Source of the DNA: a virus
Strand: one strand, 5' to 3'
Length of the DNA stretch: 6,036 nucleotides
IMG/VR virus record: IMGVR_UViG_3300045988_006460
Span: 1-6,036 of that record
Every line of letters begins with the position of its first letter. Positions within the stretch are counted from its first letter, which is position 1. The translations under genes and the position numbers were made by a program. The notes beneath the pieces were generated by a model. That model ran no database searches. It was given only the letters and a program-made list of their open reading frames with translations, and was not told the DNA's origin. Below are positions 1-6,036 of this stretch, piece after piece.

Positions 1-119
1 ATTTTTTTTGTAACGTATCCTGCAACATATCTATAGGTTTCCGGTGTTGCTTGTGCTATCTGGATTTGACCCATTCCCCATAGGTTGCACATCCATTTGC
101 TTGTATAATATCCGTTGTG
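1..119. repeat. Terminal direct repeat, copy 1: overlap from a circular-genome assembly, identical to 5918..6036
   Basis: Base-by-base reading shows 1..119 (attttttttgtaacgtatcctgc...tataatatccgttgtg) is identical to 5918..6036. A minus-strand reading frame runs seamlessly across the junction and reconstitutes one 340-aa VP4. The unit genome is therefore 5,917 nt. Confidence 0.95.
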
Positions 120-662
120 CCTTATTTTATAGATTTGCTCTAGGTCTGTTGGTTGCCAACCGTATAAAATCATATGATAGTGTGGTCTCGCTGTTTGCTC
201 TCCGTACTCTCCAGCACAGAAATAGCGTAGTTGGCCCCTGTAAGCCTTTCTGAGACGTTTTAAGAACTTTTGCATATCTGGATATAGCAATGTTTGCACG
301 CTCTCTGGTGCCTTTTCTCCCGGCTTCCAGACGTATTGAACCTTACGCATGATTTCACCGGTTTTAACTATCATTCCTGGTATGTGGTCATCATCATAAG
401 TTAGCGTGATAAACCACACTTCTTCTTTTGGCCATGCTCTGGCCTCTAGCTCTATGCGTGTTGTCCAGTCCTCTCTTTGCCGTATTCTGCACCCGATGCA
501 TTTTCCGCATGGTATTAGCATTACTTTTGGGTCATACATCAAATCTTCATACTTCATCTGTTTCCCGGTTAACTCAGAAAAGCGGGCGAGAGACATCACC
601 CGCCCGCTTATTTCTCTGTTTTCCGGGTTGTACAGCCTTATAAGTGGCTTGTAACAACTCAT
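1..662 (-). CDS. VP4: Replication initiation protein VP4 (rolling-circle endonuclease, phiX174 A-protein superfamily), N-terminal part, running off the window edge. It continues at 5917 on the circle.
   Basis: This ORF is absent from the track because it has no stop codon at this end of the window. My translation from the ATG at 662..660 is MSCYKPLIRLYNPENREISGRVMSLARFSELTGKQMKYEDLMYDPKVMLIPCGKCIGCRIRQREDWTTRIELEARAWPKEEVWFITLTYDDDHIPGM...LRYFCAGEYGEQTARPHYHMILYGW...SKW. This then joins MCNLWGMGQ... of the 5557..6009 ORF. It carries the Cys cluster PCGKCIGCR, RCR motif 1 FITLTY (396..413) and motif 2 HYH (174..182). An AGGAG Shine-Dalgarno lies about 10 nt upstream. The ATG overlaps the VP2 stop as ATGA (659..662). 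Confidence 0.92.
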   Translation of the reverse strand, partial: MSCYKPLIRLYNPENREISGRVMSLARFSELTGKQMKYEDLMYDPKVMLIPCGKCIGCRIRQREDWTTRIELEARAWPKEEVWFITLTYDDDHIPGMIVKTGEIMRKVQYVWKPGEKAPESVQTLLYPDMQKFLKRLRKAYRGQLRYFCAGEYGEQTARPHYHMILYGWQPTDLEQIYKIRHNGYYTSKWMCNLWGMGQIQIAQATPETYRYVAGYVTKK

Positions 663-1513
663 CTTAAATAATCTCCTGGTTTTCTTTTTTCGCCATAATC
701 TCCTGTTTTGTCTTGCGGCTTTGTGAATTCTTGCTTTCTTCCCTGTCTTGGCGTTACTTTTTCAACTGCTTTTTCGGTTGCTTTGTCGGTTTCGTTTCCG
801 ATTTCCGTTAGCGCCTTTTGCATTCCGTAAGGTGTCAAGTGCGTTTGGCTTAGCATTTGTTGCCAGCTTTGCGCCGCGTTGTACCAATCTGATTTGCTCC
901 AGCTGCTGCTGCTGTATGCGTTTGGCACAAATCCTCCGCTTCTGCTTACACCTAGCGCACTACTACTTGCAAGGCCTATACTTGCACCGCTGATTGTTCC
1001 TGCGCTGCCTCCTGGCGTGCTCGCGCCTCCGTTTGCGAATGCTAGTATTGGATTTAGCCCTGCTTTTTTCATGTCCTCTACGGCTCTTTGATAGGCTGTG
1101 CTTGACATTCTTTCTTGCCATTCCCTATTTTTCATGGCTTCGGTGCTATTAAAATTCATTGCCGCCGTGTTCTCGATGTGGTTATAAATGCCTTGTGCAA
1201 TTGCGCTTAAAGTGTTATAGCCCATTTGTTTTAACATGGAACCGCTGTTAAATTGACTTTGCCTTTCTGCTTCGCCTGCTTGGTATTGGTAGGCACCTTC
1301 TAGCCACTTTTGCACTTGTTCGATGTTCGTTCCTGCTTGGCTTCCGCTTTCTGAATGTCCTCCGCCTTGGCTTACACTGCCGCCTTGGCTTTGTGAATTT
1401 CCTGTCTGTCCCCATCCACCGAATGCGCCGCCTATGTTTTTTACTGCTCCTGCAATGCTTCCTATTGCGTTGGCTCCTGCGCCAATCATTGACATAATGC
1501 TTAATGGATCCAT
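659..1513 (-). CDS. VP2: Minor capsid / DNA pilot protein VP2
   Basis: The ORF is 284 aa and lies directly downstream of VP1. Its N-terminus is Gly/Ala/Ser-rich and glycine-zipper-like (MIGAGANAIGSIAGAVKNIGGAFGG), followed by low-complexity GS/Q sequence. The motif REWQERMSSTAYQRAVEDMKKAGLNPILA matches the conserved TAYQR...D...AGLNP block I recognise from gokushovirus VP2 proteins. Confidence 0.85.
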   Translation of the reverse strand: MDPLSIMSMIGAGANAIGSIAGAVKNIGGAFGGWGQTGNSQSQGGSVSQGGGHSESGSQAGTNIEQVQKWLEGAYQYQAGEAERQSQFNSGSMLKQMGYNTLSAIAQGIYNHIENTAAMNFNSTEAMKNREWQERMSSTAYQRAVEDMKKAGLNPILAFANGGASTPGGSAGTISGASIGLASSSALGVSRSGGFVPNAYSSSSWSKSDWYNAAQSWQQMLSQTHLTPYGMQKALTEIGNETDKATEKAVEKVTPRQGRKQEFTKPQDKTGDYGEKRKPGDYLR

Positions 1514-1521
1514 TTTAAAAT

Positions 1522-1541
1522 AGCCCGGATTTCTCCGGGCT
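1522..1541 (-). terminator. GC-rich hairpin with a GNRA tetraloop between VP1 and VP2: putative partial intrinsic terminator and mRNA structure
   Basis: The minus strand reads A-GCCCGGA-GAAA-TCCGGGC-T, an 8-bp stem with a GAAA loop. It is followed immediately by ATTTTAAA and then the VP2 ATG. The hairpin begins 10 nt after the VP1 stop codon. Confidence 0.5.
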
Positions 1542-1542
1542 T

Positions 1543-1550
1543 CCTCCTTT
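1543..1550 (-). promoter_or_regulatory. Shine-Dalgarno AAAGGAGG, displaced about 29 nt from the VP2 start by the intervening hairpin
   Basis: The minus strand reads TAA-G-AAAGGAGGAA-hairpin-TATTTTAAA-ATG. No other SD-like sequence lies between the hairpin and the ATG at 1513. Confidence 0.5.
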
Positions 1551-1551
1551 C

Positions 1552-3249
1552 TTACAGTTTATACAGGCCCGGCACGCTATACAATGGCATCCGTCGCGTG
1601 GTTTTGTTTGCCACTCGCACGGCTCCAAAGAATTGCGGTTCGCTCTGGACGATTAATGTTCTTGCAATCTCCGCTTTGCCTTCTGCCATCCATTCCTGGC
1701 TGAGTGTTGGAACAGTGCTGTATACATCAGCATAATGCCAGAAATCCAGTGTACCGGTGGCGTTGCTTCTCATTAGTCCAGATACCCGGTTTGGCTTCAT
1801 GCGGTAGTCTGCCCACGCTTCTTGATAGCCGAAAGTTTCCTCATCGGTCGTATCGCCTGTGAGCATGATTTCTTTCTTTTTTACCGGCTGTTCGCCTAAA
1901 TTTGCAAACTGTGGCACATAATAGTCAAGTCTGTCGCGTCTGCTCCAGAATCGTTCTAATCCCTGTTGGTAGCTTCGGTTGTGTCGTACACACGCAACAC
2001 CGATTACAAACCCGTGTTCTTCAAAACTCTTTGTGAATGAGCTTTCTCTGATAGGTGTTACGGACACTGCACCCGTTTCACCGATGGGAGTGTCGTTTTC
2101 CGTCTGCTGGCCGCTCGTCTGTACAATCTGGTTAACGTTGACTTGGTATCTGCCGCCTCCCAGATATTCCGGAATTTGTACTGTTTTGTCACTGATGGTT
2201 ACATCCCACAGTGCGCGTACCTGTTCGCGGTACCGGCTGCCGCCTCTAGCCAGCGTTTCATAGTACTGCTGCACTGCAATGGCCTGCCGCAACTCGTTTA
2301 TGGTCGTTGCTTCGATGCCGTGCAGATTTGTGTACAGGTTTCCACTTACGATGTAATTACCGCTTGGGCCTACTGTATATTCGCTGCCTTCGACGCCTGC
2401 TAATTCAACTGCTCCAGCTTTACCGTCCCAATAGCGATTGAACGCTCTGCCTGCTGCCGTTTTCGTTGGCGAGTTAAACCAAATTTGTTCGTTTTCTGCA
2501 TATGGTTCTACTTTACCGTTTACTAGATTGCCAATTATCACCGGTGCGTCACCGCTTAGGCTGATTGTTACCTCTGGCCCGCGCTGTGGATAAGGTAGAC
2601 AGCTGGTAAAATAGTCATGGTACTTGTTCACCGGTAGCAGATTTCCGCCCAACACTGCATTTTGCAGGTCTTTTTCTAGCGTTTCCGTTGCTTCTGCGTT
2701 GAATTTGTATGTCACATTTGCGTCATCGCTTTTCAAAACTGCCGCGTTGTCTATGTTTTCGTCTCTAAAAAATTCATTCCAGATTTTGACATATGCCCGG
2801 ATAGGCAATGCGTTGATGCTGAACGGTTTTTTGATTTTCGTAGGCACACCCATATAGTCCAGAATAGACCTCTCATCTGGTGCCGGTTTTGCTTCTGTGC
2901 CGTTGATATTGATTTGCGGCACTGTATATGCTTTTGTTGGCATCCACGGCGTTTCCTCAACTTCACCCATGAAGTTTTTGAAGCTGTCCCACAAGATTCG
3001 GTTCGGTGTGTAGAAGTAATAGAAGTCGATGAATGCATCGTCCATGACTGGATATTTCGGCGTGCTCATGCGGATGATTGCCGTTGTGTCTACCTGGAAA
3101 GTGTCTCCCGGAAGCACTTCATCCACGAAAAACGGAATCAGTTTTCCGGAATCAAATGTGGTTAAAATTGTCTGGTCGCGATTAAATCTCGTTCGGCTTG
3201 CGTGCATTTCCGGGATTTGAAGGAAATGCCTTTCATTATTTCTGTTCAT
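1552..3249 (-). CDS. VP1: Major capsid protein VP1 (Microviridae F-protein family)
   Basis: The ORF is 565 aa. Its N-terminus, MNRNNERHFLQIPEMHASRTRFNRDQTILTTFDSGKLIPFFVDEVLPGDTF, has the hallmark microvirus capsid signature (R..F...H...TTFD.G.L.P....EVLPGD.F). The size is typical of gokushovirus-like VP1. A GGAGGAAG SD lies 4 nt upstream of the ATG. The start overlaps the VP3 stop by 14 nt. Confidence 0.95.
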   Translation of the reverse strand: MNRNNERHFLQIPEMHASRTRFNRDQTILTTFDSGKLIPFFVDEVLPGDTFQVDTTAIIRMSTPKYPVMDDAFIDFYYFYTPNRILWDSFKNFMGEVEETPWMPTKAYTVPQININGTEAKPAPDERSILDYMGVPTKIKKPFSINALPIRAYVKIWNEFFRDENIDNAAVLKSDDANVTYKFNAEATETLEKDLQNAVLGGNLLPVNKYHDYFTSCLPYPQRGPEVTISLSGDAPVIIGNLVNGKVEPYAENEQIWFNSPTKTAAGRAFNRYWDGKAGAVELAGVEGSEYTVGPSGNYIVSGNLYTNLHGIEATTINELRQAIAVQQYYETLARGGSRYREQVRALWDVTISDKTVQIPEYLGGGRYQVNVNQIVQTSGQQTENDTPIGETGAVSVTPIRESSFTKSFEEHGFVIGVACVRHNRSYQQGLERFWSRRDRLDYYVPQFANLGEQPVKKKEIMLTGDTTDEETFGYQEAWADYRMKPNRVSGLMRSNATGTLDFWHYADVYSTVPTLSQEWMAEGKAEIARTLIVQSEPQFFGAVRVANKTTRRMPLYSVPGLYKL

Positions 3250-3640
3250 TTGCTTCCTCCGTCTTTTCCTGCGCGGTTTCCTGCGCTTTCTTCAGTTCTT
3301 CTAGCTTCATGGCGTTTACCTGTGCCGTTGCCATCATCTGGTGATACTCGTGCACGTTCTGCGGCCATCCGGTAATATCCTTGATAGGCGTTTCTTCCTT
3401 GGATAGCGCTCCCTGTGACAGACTTGCCATAAAGGCCGGGTCGAAACTCGCTTTTCTCACGATGTTTTTGATGTCGCATTCGTCTGCATAGCTTTCAATT
3501 TCGGCCTGCACGTCGATGCTTTCGGTTTCCTGTAGGTACTCTTGGCCGTCCTTATCTTTTGCCCAGACGTATTGTTTCCGTTCGTTTTTGCCCGGTTCGG
3601 AAAAGAGGGGCTTTCGCCCCTCCTCATATCGTTTATTCAT
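3236..3640 (-). CDS. VP3: Putative internal scaffolding protein VP3 (134 aa from the ATG at 3640)
   Basis: The gene sits immediately upstream of, and overlaps, VP1. It is small with an acidic, helical C-terminus (KLEELKKAQETAQEKTEEANEQK). The ECDIKNIVRK segment resembles the E.DIN.I..R block of gokushovirus VP3 as I remember it. I prefer the start at 3640 (MNKRYEEGRK...) because a GGGAGGG SD lies 8 nt upstream and this ATG overlaps the stop of the preceding gene by 8 nt. The ORF-track start at 3700 has no SD. Confidence 0.55.
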   Translation of the reverse strand: MNKRYEEGRKPLFSEPGKNERKQYVWAKDKDGQEYLQETESIDVQAEIESYADECDIKNIVRKASFDPAFMASLSQGALSKEETPIKDITGWPQNVHEYHQMMATAQVNAMKLEELKKAQETAQEKTEEANEQK

Positions 3641-3872
3641 GTGGCTTGCCCTCCCACACTTTTTCTTTGTCGTTCTGGAAGGTTCCCAGTTCATCCTCAA
3701 AGTCGGCCAATTTAAAGCCGGTGTAGTCCTGCGGACTCTGGCCGATAAATGTTTTTTCGTCCTTGGCCATCACATTGCACATTCGCGCAAAGGTTGCGTT
3801 GTTTTTGCTCTCGCCTACCCATGCATAGCATTTTGCTACGTCGTCCCAGATGCCGTAATATGCGTGAATCAT
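3633..3872 (-). CDS. Hypothetical protein, 79 aa, possibly the small conserved non-structural protein seen in many gokushoviruses
   Basis: The start is ATG with an AAAGGA SD 8 nt upstream, and the gene is packed tightly between its neighbours. The pattern YYGIWDD...ATFARMCN...QDYTGFKLADFEDELG resembles a Y.I.D...A.R.F...DY.L..[IL]G.[FY]D..G family I recall from gokushovirus genomes. This was not verified. Confidence 0.55.
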   Translation of the reverse strand: MIHAYYGIWDDVAKCYAWVGESKNNATFARMCNVMAKDEKTFIGQSPQDYTGFKLADFEDELGTFQNDKEKVWEGKPHE

Positions 3873-3888
3873 TGTTTTTGTCCTTTCT

Positions 3889-3990
3889 TTACAGCCGGAT
3901 GCCCCCGCGCATGGGCTTTTGGCTCAGGTTGATACTCTTGGTTTTTCGCGCGGTGACGTTGAACATGCGCTTATCCTTTCGCATATTCAT
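3889..3990 (-). CDS. Small, highly basic peptide of 33 aa: candidate DNA-condensing/packaging protein, analogous to phiX174 J or gokushovirus ORF8
   Basis: The ORF is below the track cutoff. My translation is MNMRKDKRMFNVTARKTKSINLSQKPMRGGIRL, with 10 K/R and 1 D. It fills the gap between the 75-aa gene (stop codon at 3995..3997) and the 79-aa gene (start at 3872), and its stop codon abuts the next gene's SD. Its own SD is weak: AAGAAG is adjacent to the first ATG and 6 nt from the ATG at 3984. Confidence 0.45.
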   Translation of the reverse strand: MNMRKDKRMFNVTARKTKSINLSQKPMRGGIRL

Positions 3991-3994
3991 CTTC

Positions 3995-4222
3995 TTACGA
4001 TATGCCATTGTAAAATCCCCTTCTGATAAGTTCAAGCTCGATTGCATTTGTAAAGCTCTTTAAGTGCCAGATTTCGTCTAGCATCTTCTTTGCGGTTTCT
4101 ATGTCCGCTATCTTGCGCAAGAGCTTATATTGCGCGTCTATCTCTTTGTATTTTTTTTCGAGAATGCTTCTCAATTCATCTTCGGTCTGGTCTCTGACGT
4201 TCCAGCTTTTGTGTAAGGGCAT
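3995..4222 (-). CDS. Hypothetical protein, 75 aa, predicted helical
   Basis: The start is ATG with a strong GAAGGAG SD 7 nt upstream. The gene is on the same strand as its neighbours and tightly packed. I recognise no motif in it. Confidence 0.6.
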   Translation of the reverse strand: MPLHKSWNVRDQTEDELRSILEKKYKEIDAQYKLLRKIADIETAKKMLDEIWHLKSFTNAIELELIRRGFYNGIS

Positions 4223-4227
4223 GTTTG

Positions 4228-4344
4228 TTACTCCTTCTCGTTCGCCGCGTCCTTAAGCGCGTGATAGATTTCATCGAGCTTTTCAAGAATGTCCATCATG
4301 AGCTTGACGGCCTGTTTGACGTCCTTCACACTAATCAGTGTCAT
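4228..4344 (-). CDS. Hypothetical small protein, 38 aa, an amphipathic helix
   Basis: The ORF is below the track cutoff. My translation is MTLISVKDVKQAVKLMMDILEKLDEIYHALKDAANEKE. An AAGGGAG SD lies 7 nt upstream. The ATG comes 2 nt after the peptidase stop codon. Its last codons (GAG AAG GAG TAA) form the SD of the next gene. Confidence 0.5.
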   Translation of the reverse strand: MTLISVKDVKQAVKLMMDILEKLDEIYHALKDAANEKE

Positions 4345-4346
4345 GG

Positions 4347-4730
4347 TTATACTCCCTTTCTATATTTGTTTTCGCGCACGTCAATGTGTACGAAATTAGT
4401 ATATCGGATGACCCCGCCTTTGTCAAGTATGTTATCTGCATATTTTGCGACTTCTTTTGAACTGTGTCCTTTCACTACGATATCCGCCGCCATTCCTTTG
4501 CAGTGATATGAGTTCCCTGCGCCGTTTACTTTTGCGTTGTGGCTTGGCGTTCTGTAGCCGCTGTTAATCGTACAAGGTGCATTGAAATGATTTCTAATCT
4601 TCTCCAGTGTTTCCAGTAGCTCTGTGCATAGGAGTAGTTCAAAACTTCCGTCTTTACACGCAAATTCTTTCGCCTCAAAGTGTTCACTCACCTTTCCGAA
4701 ATCTCTGTTAATGAAGTTAATGTGTTTCAT
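4347..4730 (-). CDS. Zinc D-Ala-D-Ala carboxypeptidase-like peptidoglycan hydrolase (peptidase M15 / LAS fold, M15A-like)
   Basis: The ORF is 127 aa. It carries SGYR (aa 57-60), an H-x6-D motif (H76CKGMAAD83) and a C-terminal FVHID (H115, D117). This is the Zn-ligand arrangement of LAS/M15 enzymes. An AAGGAG SD lies 8 nt upstream. There is no N-terminal signal peptide or TM segment. Confidence 0.85.
   Translation of the reverse strand: MKHINFINRDFGKVSEHFEAKEFACKDGSFELLLCTELLETLEKIRNHFNAPCTINSGYRTPSHNAKVNGAGNSYHCKGMAADIVVKGHSSKEVAKYADNILDKGGVIRYTNFVHIDVRENKYRKGV
4398..4426 (-). promoter_or_regulatory. Candidate internal promoter inside the peptidase gene
   Basis: The minus strand reads TTGACA (4421..4426), an exact 17-nt spacer, then TATACT (4398..4403). 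It would start transcripts about 45 nt upstream of the 38-aa ORF. Confidence 0.4.
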
Positions 4731-4917
4731 TGTTTTGCTCCTTTTCGGTGAAGTACAGTGCCACTTTTTCTACTTTGTACAGTGAGTACAGACCCGGGTG
4801 CCTGTTTGCGTAATCTTTCGCTTTCTGCTTTGCGCATTTCGGTTCCTCGTTCATTTTCAATACGGTGGTCATGGTGTCGTCATCGTTCCAGCTTCTCAGC
4901 TCGTATCTGTGCTTCAT
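4717..4917 (-). CDS. Hypothetical protein, 66 aa from the ATG at 4917, first gene after the promoter
   Basis: The ORF-track start at 4926 is a GTG sitting directly against the SD. The ATG at 4917 lies 8 nt downstream of AAGGAAGG, so I prefer it (MKHRYELRSWNDDD...). The gene overlaps the peptidase start by 14 nt. Confidence 0.55.
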   Translation of the reverse strand: MKHRYELRSWNDDDTMTTVLKMNEEPKCAKQKAKDYANRHPGLYSLYKVEKVALYFTEKEQNNETH

Positions 4918-4944
4918 TTTTAGCACCTTCCTTTCTGTGATTAT

Positions 4945-4973
4945 ATTCTATCATATTTTTAGGTTTTTGTCAA
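4945..4973 (-). promoter_or_regulatory. Near-consensus sigma70/sigmaA-type promoter with an extended -10 and an upstream A/T tract
   Basis: The minus strand reads AAAATTTTTTCAAAAAAGAC-TTGACA-(17 nt)-TGA-TAGAAT. The -35 TTGACA is at 4968..4973, the TG at 4952..4953 and the -10 TAGAAT at 4945..4950. A second TATAAT at 4940..4945 overlaps it. The first gene's SD and ATG follow about 20-30 nt downstream. Confidence 0.75.
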
Positions 4974-5013
4974 GTCTTTTTTGAAAAAATTTTAGAAAAC
5001 TTTTCCTAGGATA

Positions 5014-5091
5014 GGAGCGCCATTAAACTCCCCGCTGCAGCGGCTCCTTTTGATAAGACCGGCAAGGCCGGTCAGACTGTTGGTGCGCTCC
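5014..5091. other. 78-nt closed multi-stem element, with a three-way-junction-like potential fold
   Basis: The outer 7-bp stem pairs GGAGCGC (5014..5020) with GCGCTCC (5085..5091). It encloses the perfect 12-nt palindrome CCGCTGCAGCGG (5032..5043) and the hairpin GACCGGC-AAG-GCCGGTC (5057..5073). It lies about 40 nt upstream of the promoter -35 element. Confidence 0.45.
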
Positions 5092-5135
5092 GTTAGACTT
5101 TGCCTTCACCGCTCACTCTGTTTTATTGGCCGTTC

Positions 5136-5270
5136 TTTTCAACTTTTCCACATTGTTAAACTTTAGCACAACAGAGCATTTCAACAATTCAACAAGTTTT
5201 CAACATTTCTTTTAACAGTACTTTCTTTTATAAAGAAACGTTATTGTGTTATTTTTTAATGGTTTTCAAC
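5136..5270. repeat. AT-rich block with five copies of TTCAAC(A), which reads GTTGAA on the gene strand
   Basis: TTCAAC occurs at 5138, 5180, 5188, 5199 and 5265. The middle three copies are spaced 8 and 11 nt apart. The 9-mer CAACAAGTT occurs twice (5190..5198 and 5299..5307). TTTTCCACA at 5144..5152 fits the relaxed DnaA-box consensus TTWTNCACA. Confidence 0.5.
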
Positions 5271-5312
5271 TTTTTAACTACCTCTACTACTACGACTACA
5301 ACAAGTTAATAA

Positions 5313-5364
5313 ATATATGCGCGTGCGTGCGTGCGCGTCTACGTGCGCGTATGCGCGCGCATAC
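5313..5364. repeat. Alternating purine-pyrimidine (CG/TG/TA) tract, Z-DNA-prone, which is also an imperfect palindrome
   Basis: Strict R/Y alternation holds across 5313..5338 and again across 5340..5364, with a single phase slip at c5339. The arm 5316..5338 can pair with 5341..5363 at 23 positions, giving 18 Watson-Crick pairs and 5 G-T pairs. The tract includes the perfect palindrome TATGCGCGCGCATA (5350..5363). Confidence 0.8.
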
Positions 5365-5386
5365 CTTTGAGCGCTTTAGCGCGAAC

Positions 5387-5449
5387 CGGCACCGGATAGG
5401 TGCCGTGCCAATAGGGGGCACGGGGGACGCGAGCGGAACGCGGCCCCCG
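5387..5449. other. Three abutting GC-rich hairpins
   Basis: H1 is CGGCACC-GGATA-GGTGCCG (5387..5405). H2 is GTGCC-AATAGGG-GGCAC (5405..5421). H3 is CGGGGG-A-CGCG-AGCGGAA-CGCG-G-CCCCCG (5421..5449), with 10 bp and one A/G mismatch. On the plus strand H3 is followed by GATTTCTTGATAATTTC. Confidence 0.6.
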
Positions 5450-5490
5450 GATTTCTTGATAATTTCAATCACTGAATAGGCTGATACATG

Positions 5491-5507
5491 GAGCCTTTAA
5501 ACGGCTC
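5491..5507. other. Small hairpin GAGCC-TTTAAAC-GGCTC
   Basis: It has a 5-bp stem and a 7-nt loop, and it abuts the 14-bp hairpin at 5507..5542. Confidence 0.4.
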
Positions 5508-5542
5508 TGGCCCAGTACCTTACTTGATAGGTACTGGGCCAG
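5507..5542 (-). terminator. Perfect 14-bp hairpin 14 nt downstream of the VP4 stop: putative transcription terminator or ssDNA structural signal
   Basis: CTGGCCCAGTACCT (5507..5520) pairs perfectly with AGGTACTGGGCCAG (5529..5542) around the 8-nt loop TACTTGAT. No clear U-tract follows on either strand, so its function as an intrinsic terminator is uncertain. Confidence 0.45.
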
Positions 5543-5556
5543 GTGACACCAAAATC

Positions 5557-6036
5557 TTATAAACCGCCTTTTTGGAGTTTTACAGACTTTTTGACAACTC
5601 TTTCTTTTGTTTTTAAGTTCTCTGCGAAATCTGCATTTTCATACTTGAGCCGGTTTTGTTCGATTACTGCTTTCTGTCGGTTCCTCTTGATTCTCCATAA
5701 CCGTTCTGGATTTTCTGCTTCCATCATTTTTTCATAATATCGTGGAATTTGTGCTTGTTTTCCGTTGGTGCACTGGATATAGCCTTTTTTCCATATTTCT
5801 TCCTTGTGTTCTTGATAGTAGGAATCGCCTAGGCCCGGCTTCAGACTCATGCATGCAAATGGTTTCTGCTGGCCTAACTCGTAATACACGTTTGCTTTCT
5901 GGCCGTCAATTTCGTACATTTTTTTTGTAACGTATCCTGCAACATATCTATAGGTTTCCGGTGTTGCTTGTGCTATCTGGATTTGACCCATTCCCCATAG
6001 GTTGCACATCCATTTGCTTGTATAATATCCGTTGTG
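5557..6036 (-). CDS. VP4: Replication initiation protein VP4, C-terminal part. The full protein is 340 aa across the circular junction.
   Basis: The frame is continuous with 1..662 through the 119-nt overlap. It contains the two-tyrosine RCR motif 3, YVAGYVTKK (5920..5946, also present at 3..29), which closely resembles the active-site YVAKYVNK of the phiX174 A protein as I recall it. The stop is TAA at 5557..5559. The Met at 6009 in the ORF track is internal. Confidence 0.92.
   Translation of the reverse strand, partial: HNGYYTSKWMCNLWGMGQIQIAQATPETYRYVAGYVTKKMYEIDGQKANVYYELGQQKPFACMSLKPGLGDSYYQEHKEEIWKKGYIQCTNGKQAQIPRYYEKMMEAENPERLWRIKRNRQKAVIEQNRLKYENADFAENLKTKERVVKKSVKLQKGGL
5918..6036. 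repeat. Terminal direct repeat, copy 2 (identical to 1..119)
   Basis: Same as copy 1. This is a redundancy from linearising a circle, not a biological repeat. Confidence 0.95.

Follow-up and report, generated by a model that had tools for sequence, protein, structure and literature searches.

A gene-free region in a gut gokushovirus genome

IMG/VR virus record IMGVR_UViG_3300045988_006460, positions 1 to 6,036 (hereafter the window, meaning this whole stretch of DNA), is a circular genome of 5917 nucleotides (nt) whose first 119 bases recur at its end as a 119-nt terminal overlap. The phage is a gokushovirus, and its nearest database records are gokushoviruses from the faeces of human, pig and monkey. 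All credible genes lie on the minus strand, in the order 66-amino acid (aa) open reading frame (ORF), M15 peptidase/endolysin, small ORFs, VP5-like protein, scaffold protein VP3, capsid protein VP1, pilot protein VP2 and replication initiator Rep, the last of which spans the window ends (662..1 joined to 5917..5557). Rep contains a REP_ORF2-G2P domain (PF23343), the HUH motif HYHMI and the segment YVAGYVTKK with paired tyrosines (YxxxY), as in phiX174 protein A. We analyzed the region between the end of Rep at 5557 and the start of the first gene at 4917 or 4926. As a first-pass annotation of the window had proposed, the 630 nt from 4927 to 5556 hold no credible ORF. Below, the plus strand is the non-coding strand and the minus strand the coding strand.

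The first-pass annotation divided this region into three compartments, namely a multi-stem element, an AT-rich segment and a GC-rich segment, and placed its emphasis on the structured elements. The structural details hold. GC content shifts abruptly from 0.26 to 0.69 across ~5300-5450, and the whole region folds more stably than its shuffles on both strands (z = -7.1 for plus and -5.0 for minus). The compartments are not the functional units, as a comparison of 83 related loci (6 from GenBank and 80 from viral contigs via Rep similarity) placed the conserved units at 5470-5550 and ~5135-5360. Sequence 5547-5470 was common to ~60-82 of the 83 loci and 5356-5180 to ~70, compared with ~12 loci for the GC-rich hairpin block (5466-5367) and ~5 for 5176-4990 with its multi-stem element. 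The parts of the region that are richest in visible structure are its least conserved, optional ones. Its conserved core consists of the last hairpin (hairpin 1) and the AT-rich segment (~5135-5320), which are found in almost all relatives. These core blocks are more conserved than the proteins. In some genomes (such as L008 and L013) hairpin 1 directly adjoins the AT-rich module, and the distance from Rep to the peptidase ranges from ~470 to 1030 nt among relatives. The large size of the window region is thus explained by a conserved core combined with lineage-specific insertions.

A conserved hairpin on the non-coding strand

Hairpin 1 (5507..5542, plus strand) consists of a perfect 14-base pair (bp) stem (5507-5520 paired with 5529-5542) and an 8-nt loop, TACTTGAT (5521-5528). 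It is followed, at a distance of 0 nt, by a conserved 3' flank, GTGACACC (5543..5550, plus strand), which reads GGTGTCAC on the coding strand. Neither the loop (TATCAAGTAAG in the coding-strand reading) nor GGTGTCAC varied across 114 distinct sequences, while the stem did so by compensatory substitutions. A check for covariation among related intergenic regions, as the annotation had suggested, was positive in this stem: 5 of 13 stem pairs had changed on both sides (25 cells), none of 500 shuffles reached the observed score, and controls with a slid register collapsed. Counts of G.T versus A.C in the stem were considered as a strand marker and dropped, being too few and too mixed.

We defined a pan-gokushovirus hairpin as a perfect stem, 8 bp or longer, that closes a CTTG-containing loop of up to 16 nt and has TGAC(AC) no more than a few nt 3' of the stem. 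Hairpin 1 fits this definition, but it sits on the non-coding rather than the coding strand. Chlamydia phage Chp2 has a perfect intergenic hairpin with the loop TCTACTTGAT on its coding strand. Lineages with a Rep ~38% identical to that of the window carry a homologous hairpin with other stems and a retained KTGACAC(C) flank. Most of their loops read TCCTTGTCT, and others TACTTGTCT or GCCTTGTC, compared with TACTTGAT in the close group of the window. We then compared orientations. Among 79 diverse gokushovirus genomes fetched by VP1 profile, the coding strand carried the element as strictly defined in 60 and the non-coding strand in 1, with neither strand carrying it in 18; for the 141 near-complete genomes of the window lineage the corresponding numbers were 0, 133 and 8, a contrast that probably goes back to one or two evolutionary events. 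The sole non-coding-strand hairpin of the diverse sample (L278) may represent an independent inversion or a relative of the window lineage.

The loop of hairpin 1 shares ACTTGATA with the gene-A origin of phiX174, CAACTTGATATT, which was verified inside gene A in the phiX174 sequence. In phiX174 the cut falls after the G, and ACTTGATA spans the cleavage position. The likeness does not extend to the 30-nt phiX174 origin consensus of recognition, spacer and key sequences, with only ACTTGATA (in the loop) or AACTTG (in a motif of the AT-rich module, described below) in common. Because its loop is conserved and tracks the Rep lineage, its stem covaries and its presence is subfamily-wide, hairpin 1 has the properties expected of a Rep recognition and nick site. 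We consider hairpin 1 and its GTGACACC flank the most likely candidate for that site. A gokushovirus origin or ACTTGAT element was not described in the searchable literature; subscription-only papers on Chp1, SpV4 and phiMH2K fell outside this search and may mention the hairpin.

Next to hairpin 1 lie hairpin 2 (GAGCC 5491-5495 paired with GGCTC 5503-5507) and an adjoining block, CATGTATCAG.CTATTCAGT, which together occupy 5469..5507 (no strand assigned) and occur in ~57-60 of the 83 relatives. In 25 of 64 relatives the block includes a tandem 9-mer, TCAGnCTAT-TCAGTCTAT, at a distance of ~25 nt from hairpin 1. The window copy of the 9-mer is degenerate (5469..5490, TCAGCCTAT TCAGTGATT). Judging from its place beside the candidate nick hairpin, this repeat might be bound by a protein, possibly Rep.

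A module with the layout of a bacterial unwinding region

The basal unwinding system of bacteria has, in order, a DnaA box that departs from TTATCCACA at no more than 2 positions, a spacer of 0-16 bp, at least three DnaA-trios (3'-GAT-5') and an unwinding element (PMC8287927). The order predicted for Clostridioides difficile oriC2 is three boxes, a GC cluster, the trio tract CACCTACTACTATTACTACTATGA and the unwinding element, and nuclease assays put DnaA-dependent unwinding in that region (PMC7561715).

The AT-rich segment of the window has the published box, spacer, run of at least three trios and AT-rich element, with the box present also as a species-specific variant. The first-pass annotation had noted repeated TTCAAC(A) motifs here, and 5 of the 7 TTCAAC copies in the genome indeed fall within 5138-5265. 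Their sequence and setting identify these repeats as predicted DnaA-box variants within a module shaped like a bacterial origin, a reading absent from that annotation. The putative boxes all point one way on the plus strand (5136..5271): TTTTCAACT at 5136, TTTTCCACA at 5144, TTTAGCACA at 5162, ATTTCAACA at 5178, TTTTCAACA at 5197 and a further TTTTCAACT at 5263. The TTTTCCACA box at 5144 has 1 mismatch to TTATCCACA. From the box at 5263-5271, a spacer of 12 nt (5272-5283; mostly 4 nt in relatives) leads to a DnaA-trio-like run at 5284..5298 (TAG TCG TAG TAG TAG on the minus strand, CTA CTA CTA CGA CTA on the plus strand), whose polarity is that of C. difficile oriC2. Then come a 13-mer on the minus strand, TAACTTGTTGTAG, with the core ACTTGTTG (5296..5308; invariant in 65 distinct sequences), and the AT-rich stretch GTTAATAAATATAT (5305..5318, plus strand). 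This stretch occupies the position of the unwinding element and aligns with TATAATATAA of an Oscillospiraceae dnaA-dnaN origin.

The same layout recurs in related phages. Alignment of the 65 distinct copies gave an invariant TAACTTGTTGTAG..GTAGTAGTAG followed by conserved GTTGAAAA repeats, and a 19-nt core of the module was present in at least 119 viral contigs. Read on the box strand, the module consists of a one-way TTTTCAACA/TTTTCCACA array, a short spacer, CTA CTA CTA, CAACAAGTTA and the AT-rich stretch. Boxes with at most 1 mismatch averaged 1.03 per module in 151 distinct modules, versus 0.07 in dinucleotide shuffles. With at most 2 mismatches, the averages were 4.75 and 0.96, so that boxes were 5- to 15-fold enriched. 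Almost all of these boxes were directed toward the trios. The published box-spacer-trio rule held in 116 of the 151 modules, mostly in the form TTTTCCACA + 4 nt + CTACTACTAC. The box/trio signature was found in 137 of 142 genomes of the window lineage and in 0 of 78 other gokushoviruses, a comparison that is partly circular, as many loci were fetched with a trio-containing motif; among loci fetched by Rep, ~70 of 83 have the module. Motif matches in nine large or Rep-less viral contigs without microvirus genes had no common flanks and were set aside as chance. The searchable literature yielded nothing that links DnaA boxes with microviruses.

Homology to bacterial chromosomal origins

Bacterial genomes (one per species) were scanned for three closely spaced TGTTGAAA units. 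The scan returned at least 120 loci, none with microvirus genes. Among the bacterial loci listed, 14 were at dnaA/dnaN, nearly always directly downstream of dnaA. Pfam searches at these origin loci identified DnaA and DnaN, with yidC and jag upstream. The titles seen for the dnaA/dnaN-adjacent loci were metagenome-assembled genomes (MAGs) of Ruminococcus, Oscillospiraceae or Clostridia, and one labelled Alistipes. Between dnaA and dnaN, the bacterial layout comprises an AT-rich element, (TAG)5, a 4-nt GC cluster, TGTTGAAAC TGTGGAAAAG (TGTTGAAAC-TGTGGAAAA) and long TGTTGAAAA arrays. Origins of Ruminococcus and Oscillospiraceae MAGs contain long arrays of TGTTGAAAA (TTTTCAACA) together with (TAG)5 trios, as noted in the bacterial dnaA-dnaN intergenic regions L289, L298, L308, L310, L321, L329, L352, L395 and L399. 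From this distribution, TTTTCAACA appears to be a clade-specific DnaA-box variant that these Clostridia use at their own origin. No description of this variant was found in the papers searched.

Alignment of a phage module (L122) with a bacterial origin (L298) was collinear, with 71% identity over 212 nt, including TTGTTGAAAACTTGTTGAA..GTTGAAA.ACTCT.TTG, a value inflated by repeated motifs. As the order of elements is common to phage and bacterial origin, the module is presumably derived from a host origin. The clearest difference is ACTTGTTG, a phage-specific insert between the AT-rich element and the trios. The bacterial origins lack this insert, which is similar to hairpin-loop variants (TTACTTGTTGT) in other gokushoviruses. 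The window module is not located beside dnaA/dnaN, but between Rep and the first microvirus gene, a location which indicates that it is an oriC mimic or derivative rather than oriC itself. Prophages were considered as a source of the bacterial matches and rejected, as none of these carried microvirus genes or the TAACTTGTTG core.

Two further matches stand apart from these origins. In L383 (~4213..4662), a box/(TAG)3/AT-rich signature lies beside a phosphofructokinase gene and could be a second DnaA-box cluster or belong to a plasmid or other element. A Nitrosopumilus contig (L331, 895..1142) contains seven matches to the iteron pattern at an exact spacing of 36 nt, which marks it as a tandem repeat array unrelated to the phage.

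Portability of the module

The orientation of the module varies. In 146 loci the coding strand carries it, 69-288 nt after Rep, and in 30 it is found on the opposite strand. Even close relatives with Rep 83-86% identical (L035/L161, L061/L090, L064, L065/L132, L077 and L195) have the module flipped in place. The flipped part is the equivalent of 5312-5180 only, with hairpin 1, the alternating purine/pyrimidine (Pu/Py) tract and the promoter unmoved. GC-rich alternating tracts flank the module on both sides and match the inversion breakpoints, which suggests that inversion may have occurred in place via recombination or template switching at quasi-palindromes. The position of the module varies as well: in a lineage with Rep and VP1 38-40% identical, the same ~230-nt module lies between VP2 and Rep, beside the hairpin of that lineage. 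A module that is indifferent to orientation, movable and better conserved than proteins fits a site read on double-stranded DNA by a common host factor.

Structured elements and neighboring features

The 52-nt alternating Pu/Py tract reported in the first-pass annotation is real (5313..5364). It comprises runs of 26 nt (5313-5338) and 25 nt (5340-5364), compared with a longest run of 20 nt in 500 shuffles. The tract is a GC-rich quasi-palindrome whose plus strand alone folds into a 22-bp hairpin, one with numerous G.T pairs. Its computed fold has -21.7 kcal/mol on the plus strand and -13.0 kcal/mol on the minus strand, where the G.T pairs become A.C mismatches. Beyond it lies the GC-rich block (5366..5466, plus strand), a lineage-specific insertion in ~12 of 83 relatives with four short hairpins in the computed folds. 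Part of this block forms a different hairpin in relatives, with compensatory and G.T changes on the plus strand. The annotation had counted five hairpins in the GC-rich part; the hairpins are there, but they number six, with four in this block plus hairpins 1 and 2.

At the other end of the region, the closed multi-stem element (5014..5091, plus strand) folds as annotated beside the main promoter, and is likewise a lineage-specific insertion, present in ~5 of 83 relatives. Compensatory changes affect three of its pairs, and where only one side has changed (17 cases) the result is in every case G.U/G.T on the plus strand. A transfer RNA (tRNA)-like reading of this 78-nt element was dropped, as ARAGORN found 0 tRNA genes, and Rfam gave no family match, with only sub-threshold microRNA hits on the palindromic tract that we judged spurious. 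The main promoter of the gene block (4945..4973, minus strand) reads TTGACA-17 nt-TAGAAT with a TG extension, matching 11 of 12 consensus positions, and is followed by a strong ribosome-binding site and the first gene at 4917.

Two other roles were considered for the region. Transcription termination, one of the roles raised in the first-pass annotation, gained no support: a scan for intrinsic terminators found no T-run behind hairpin 1 (checked on both strands), hairpin 2 or the GC-rich block, and a terminator for Rep was dropped. A hidden small gene was also rejected, as ORFs in the region cross modules that are absent from relatives, and the conserved blocks, with indel-rich spacers between them, show no variation at any position.

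Outside the region, two small ORFs overlap on the minus strand (3889..4047 and 3995..4222). One, of 52 aa, matches phrog_10695 and is Arg/Lys-rich, as expected of a DNA-binding or packaging protein; the other, of 75 aa, had no family match. The M15 peptidase (4347..4730) has 92-96% identity to its counterparts in a few relatives and ~50% in most genomes with near-identical Rep, a pattern which indicates modular exchange of the lysis gene within the lineage. Some microvirus matches lie on oversized contigs, namely L036 (8781 nt), L048 (10917 nt), L069 (10711 nt) and L257 (30505 nt), which could be concatemers, chimeras or integrated copies.

The strand that acts single-stranded

The first-pass annotation took the gene strand as the single-stranded viral strand. 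The orientation of hairpin 1 and the asymmetry of G.T pairs point instead to the non-coding strand. Across 79 distinct Pu/Py tracts from related sequences, whose counts are not independent, the non-coding strand was the more stable in 76 and the coding strand in none, with 293 G.T pairs on the former versus 10 on the latter. The mean strand difference was -5.8 kcal/mol, compared with -1.6 in shuffles which keep composition and alternation. Hairpin orientation, Pu/Py tract folding and the wobble pairs of the multi-stem element agree in pointing to the plus strand as the single-stranded form. We infer that this strand, whose sense is opposite to that of all the genes, is the one that the replicative form gives off and is probably also the one packaged.

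As a marker of the packaged strand, we also tried A/T skew at 4-fold degenerate sites. The coding strand of this lineage is extremely A-rich there: A was ~0.47-0.55 and T ~0.11-0.13 in window genes 1552..3249 and 659..1513, in Rep and in L007-L196. Elsewhere, Chp2 (T 0.49) and SpV4 (T 0.65) were T-rich and phiMH2K was A-rich. Skew across 80 other gokushoviruses ranged from -0.86 to +0.52 and did not track hairpin orientation. The marker was dropped, since it did not flip with module orientation and several A-rich lineages keep the hairpin on the coding strand.

A model for the region

The explanation we favor, and hold to be probable, is that this is a composite replication control region built from a Rep hairpin, a captured host-origin DnaA module, strand-specific hairpins and a promoter. 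The annotation had regarded the region as functional and listed origins of replication among its possible roles. Conservation of the core blocks and covariation in hairpin 1 bear out the former, and of the roles listed a replication origin best explains the region.

In this model, a Rep of the phiX174 type would nick the plus strand in the loop of hairpin 1, and rolling-circle synthesis would displace that strand. That strand, which is probably also the packaged one, would run antisense to the genes. The likely host is a member of Oscillospiraceae/Ruminococcus, from whose chromosome origin the module would have come. Judging from architecture and homology, the box array of the replicative form would be a binding site for host DnaA, which would polymerize onto the trios and melt the AT-rich element. 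Melting would help host helicase loading and DNA synthesis, and may expose the phage-specific ACTTGTTG. The plus-strand-only hairpins, two of which are optional, may act on the single-stranded form, for example in complementary-strand priming. The promoter at the gene-proximal end would drive the gene block. A more far-reaching version, in which a widespread gut gokushovirus lineage captured the DnaA unwinding module of its Oscillospiraceae/Ruminococcus host, inserted a Rep-type motif and packages the antisense strand, is put forward tentatively and seems to us rather less likely than not to hold in full.

Several observations weigh against the favored explanation. To our knowledge, every characterized microvirus packages its coding-sense strand, and antisense packaging thus starts from a strongly unfavorable prior. 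The 4-fold-site skew does not separate the two polarity models, and the relatedness of the sequences limits what both the tract counts and the orientation contrast can say about polarity. For the module, the box next to the trios (TTTTCAACT, 5263) is degenerate, departing from the Escherichia coli consensus TTATCCACA at 3 positions and from the Oscillospiraceae-type box at only 1; with the strict consensus, 3 boxes are left in the window (P ~0.04). To these may be added the partial circularity of the signature counts and the effect of repeated motifs on the alignment with the bacterial origin. Assignment of the host relies on MAG bins, one of which is labelled Alistipes, and on taxa known for nine of the 14 origin-adjacent loci, all but L364, L387, L395, L398 and L399. 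Lastly, the phage-specific ACTTGTTG motif could take the place of hairpin 1 as the nick site.

This last point leads to the alternative which survives best, though we think it unlikely: the invariant TAACTTG/TTG motif in the DnaA module would be the true Rep nick site and the module the plus-strand origin, with hairpin 1 serving as complementary-strand origin or other single-strand signal. The motif is invariant and absent from bacterial origins, it is like the loop variants TTACTTGTTGT and the AACTTG of phiX174, and it stands exactly at the boundary of trios and AT-rich element, where DnaA opens DNA. Its orientation argues for hairpin 1 instead. Of the loci with the motif, 146 have it on the coding strand and 30 on the other, with both states found even among close relatives, whereas hairpin 1 and the strand-specific hairpins keep one orientation. 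A motif acting as nick site would make the packaged strand change over while its single-strand signals stayed in place. Moreover, phages whose Reps are only ~38% identical have the motif in identical form but differ in their hairpin loop, and most gokushoviruses carry the hairpin while lacking the module altogether.

A less probable alternative assigns the DnaA-box array a role outside replication initiation, either as a sink for DnaA (titration from the many-copy replicative form, stopping host replication) or as an operator at which DnaA would serve as transcription factor for a nearby promoter. The dense, one-way array would suit such a role, and so would its place, which in the window is upstream of the main promoter and in a distant lineage directly upstream of Rep. 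However, a sink or operator needs boxes only, whereas the module also keeps trios, 4-nt spacer and AT-rich element, arranged exactly as in an unwinding system in both order and polarity, and can be aligned with a true dnaA-dnaN origin. The module also varies in orientation and in how far it lies from promoters.

We consider it very unlikely that the structured parts encode a non-coding RNA (ncRNA) transcribed from the plus strand, antisense to the genes, a possibility also raised in the first-pass annotation. Such a transcript would explain why G.U pairs are favored on that strand only, and would accord with the strong plus-strand folding (z = -7.1) and a weak promoter-like match on the plus strand at 4920-4947. 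That match covers 9 of 12 positions, no described ncRNA family was matched in Rfam, no plus-strand terminator was found and the structured modules are optional in close relatives. In an ssDNA (single-stranded DNA) phage, moreover, single-stranded DNA accounts for the asymmetry without a transcript.

A reading of the region as mostly filler without function, as a scar of recombination or as an artefact of assembly, which the variable Rep-to-peptidase distance and two dispensable modules might suggest, is effectively refuted by core blocks that outdo the proteins in conservation, by covariation in hairpin 1 and by recurrence of the modules in >170 independent contigs and in GenBank records submitted by several laboratories, which excludes the assembly chimera that the annotation had named as a caveat.

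Implications

Microviruses rank with the most abundant phages in the human gut, and their replication signals outside phiX174 are essentially unmapped. The composite-region model offers a testable map for one large gut lineage, with a candidate Rep hairpin common to most gokushoviruses and a module that resembles the host origin. The combination of an opposite-pointing replication hairpin with a host-origin-like copy suggests a new way of phage copying. If the module works as it looks, it would recruit the host initiator DnaA, which could explain plasmid-like persistence in the gut. No dependence of an ssDNA phage on host DnaA via such a module is described in the searchable literature. If the more far-reaching version of the model is true, this would be the first negative-sense microvirus lineage and the first ssDNA phage shown to be dependent on host DnaA through an oriC mimic.

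Two practical consequences would follow. The TTTTCAACA box variant ties these phages to Oscillospiraceae/Ruminococcus, and could allow hosts of uncultured phages to be predicted from sequence. The inverted hairpin, together with folding confined to the non-coding strand, calls into question whether all microviruses package the coding strand, which bears on how ssDNA viromes are read and quantified.

Comparison with known systems

Functional non-coding sites are known in related phages, as enterobacterial gokushoviruses carry dif/XerCD integration sites (PMC7062461). The window is unlike these phages in having no dif-like sequence: the 28-bp dif/XerCD core gave no match at up to 3 mismatches to the Bacillus subtilis or E. 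coli dif cores.

Complementary-strand origins include the hairpins of M13, G4 and phiX174 and the single-strand origins of plasmids. The window hairpins are like these in folding on one strand only and in being intergenic in an ssDNA replicon. They differ in being optional, in folding on the non-coding strand and in having no sequence similarity to described elements. Conserved intergenic hairpins have also been reported in small microviruses (PMC9865509).

With respect to the nick site, hairpin 1 can be compared with two kinds of origin. Stem-loop nick sites occur in other replicons with HUH-type Rep proteins, such as the nonanucleotide loop of CRESS-DNA viruses (ssDNA viruses with circular genomes that encode a Rep) and the double-strand origins of pMV158-type plasmids. 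Shared features are the conserved loop, the compensatory stem and direct repeats nearby; the Rep family and the loop sequence differ. The plus-strand TACTACGAC of the window matches the pMV158 nick sequence, and was rejected as a candidate because it is not conserved in relatives, whose consensus is TACTACTCC. The gene-A origin of phiX174, CAACTTG/ATATTAATAACACTATAGACCAC, is served by a protein of the same family as the window Rep and shares ACTTGATA with the loop. Unlike hairpin 1, it lies inside gene A and outside any hairpin loop, the rest of its 30 nt is not in common, and the window motif is opposite to the genes.

The closest counterparts of the module are bacterial. It resembles the basal unwinding system of B. 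subtilis, and that predicted for C. difficile oriC2, in the order and polarity of its elements, a spacer of 4-12 nt, runs of 5'-TAG-3' trios and one-way boxes (PMC8287927, PMC7561715, PMC6669920). The dnaA-dnaN origins of Oscillospiraceae/Ruminococcus come nearer still in aligning collinearly and in sharing the unusual box variant TTTTCAACA. In contrast to these origins, the phage module is a predicted DnaA site that resides in a 5.9-kb ssDNA phage, carries the ACTTGTTG insert, is flanked by Pu/Py tracts and occurs in either orientation.

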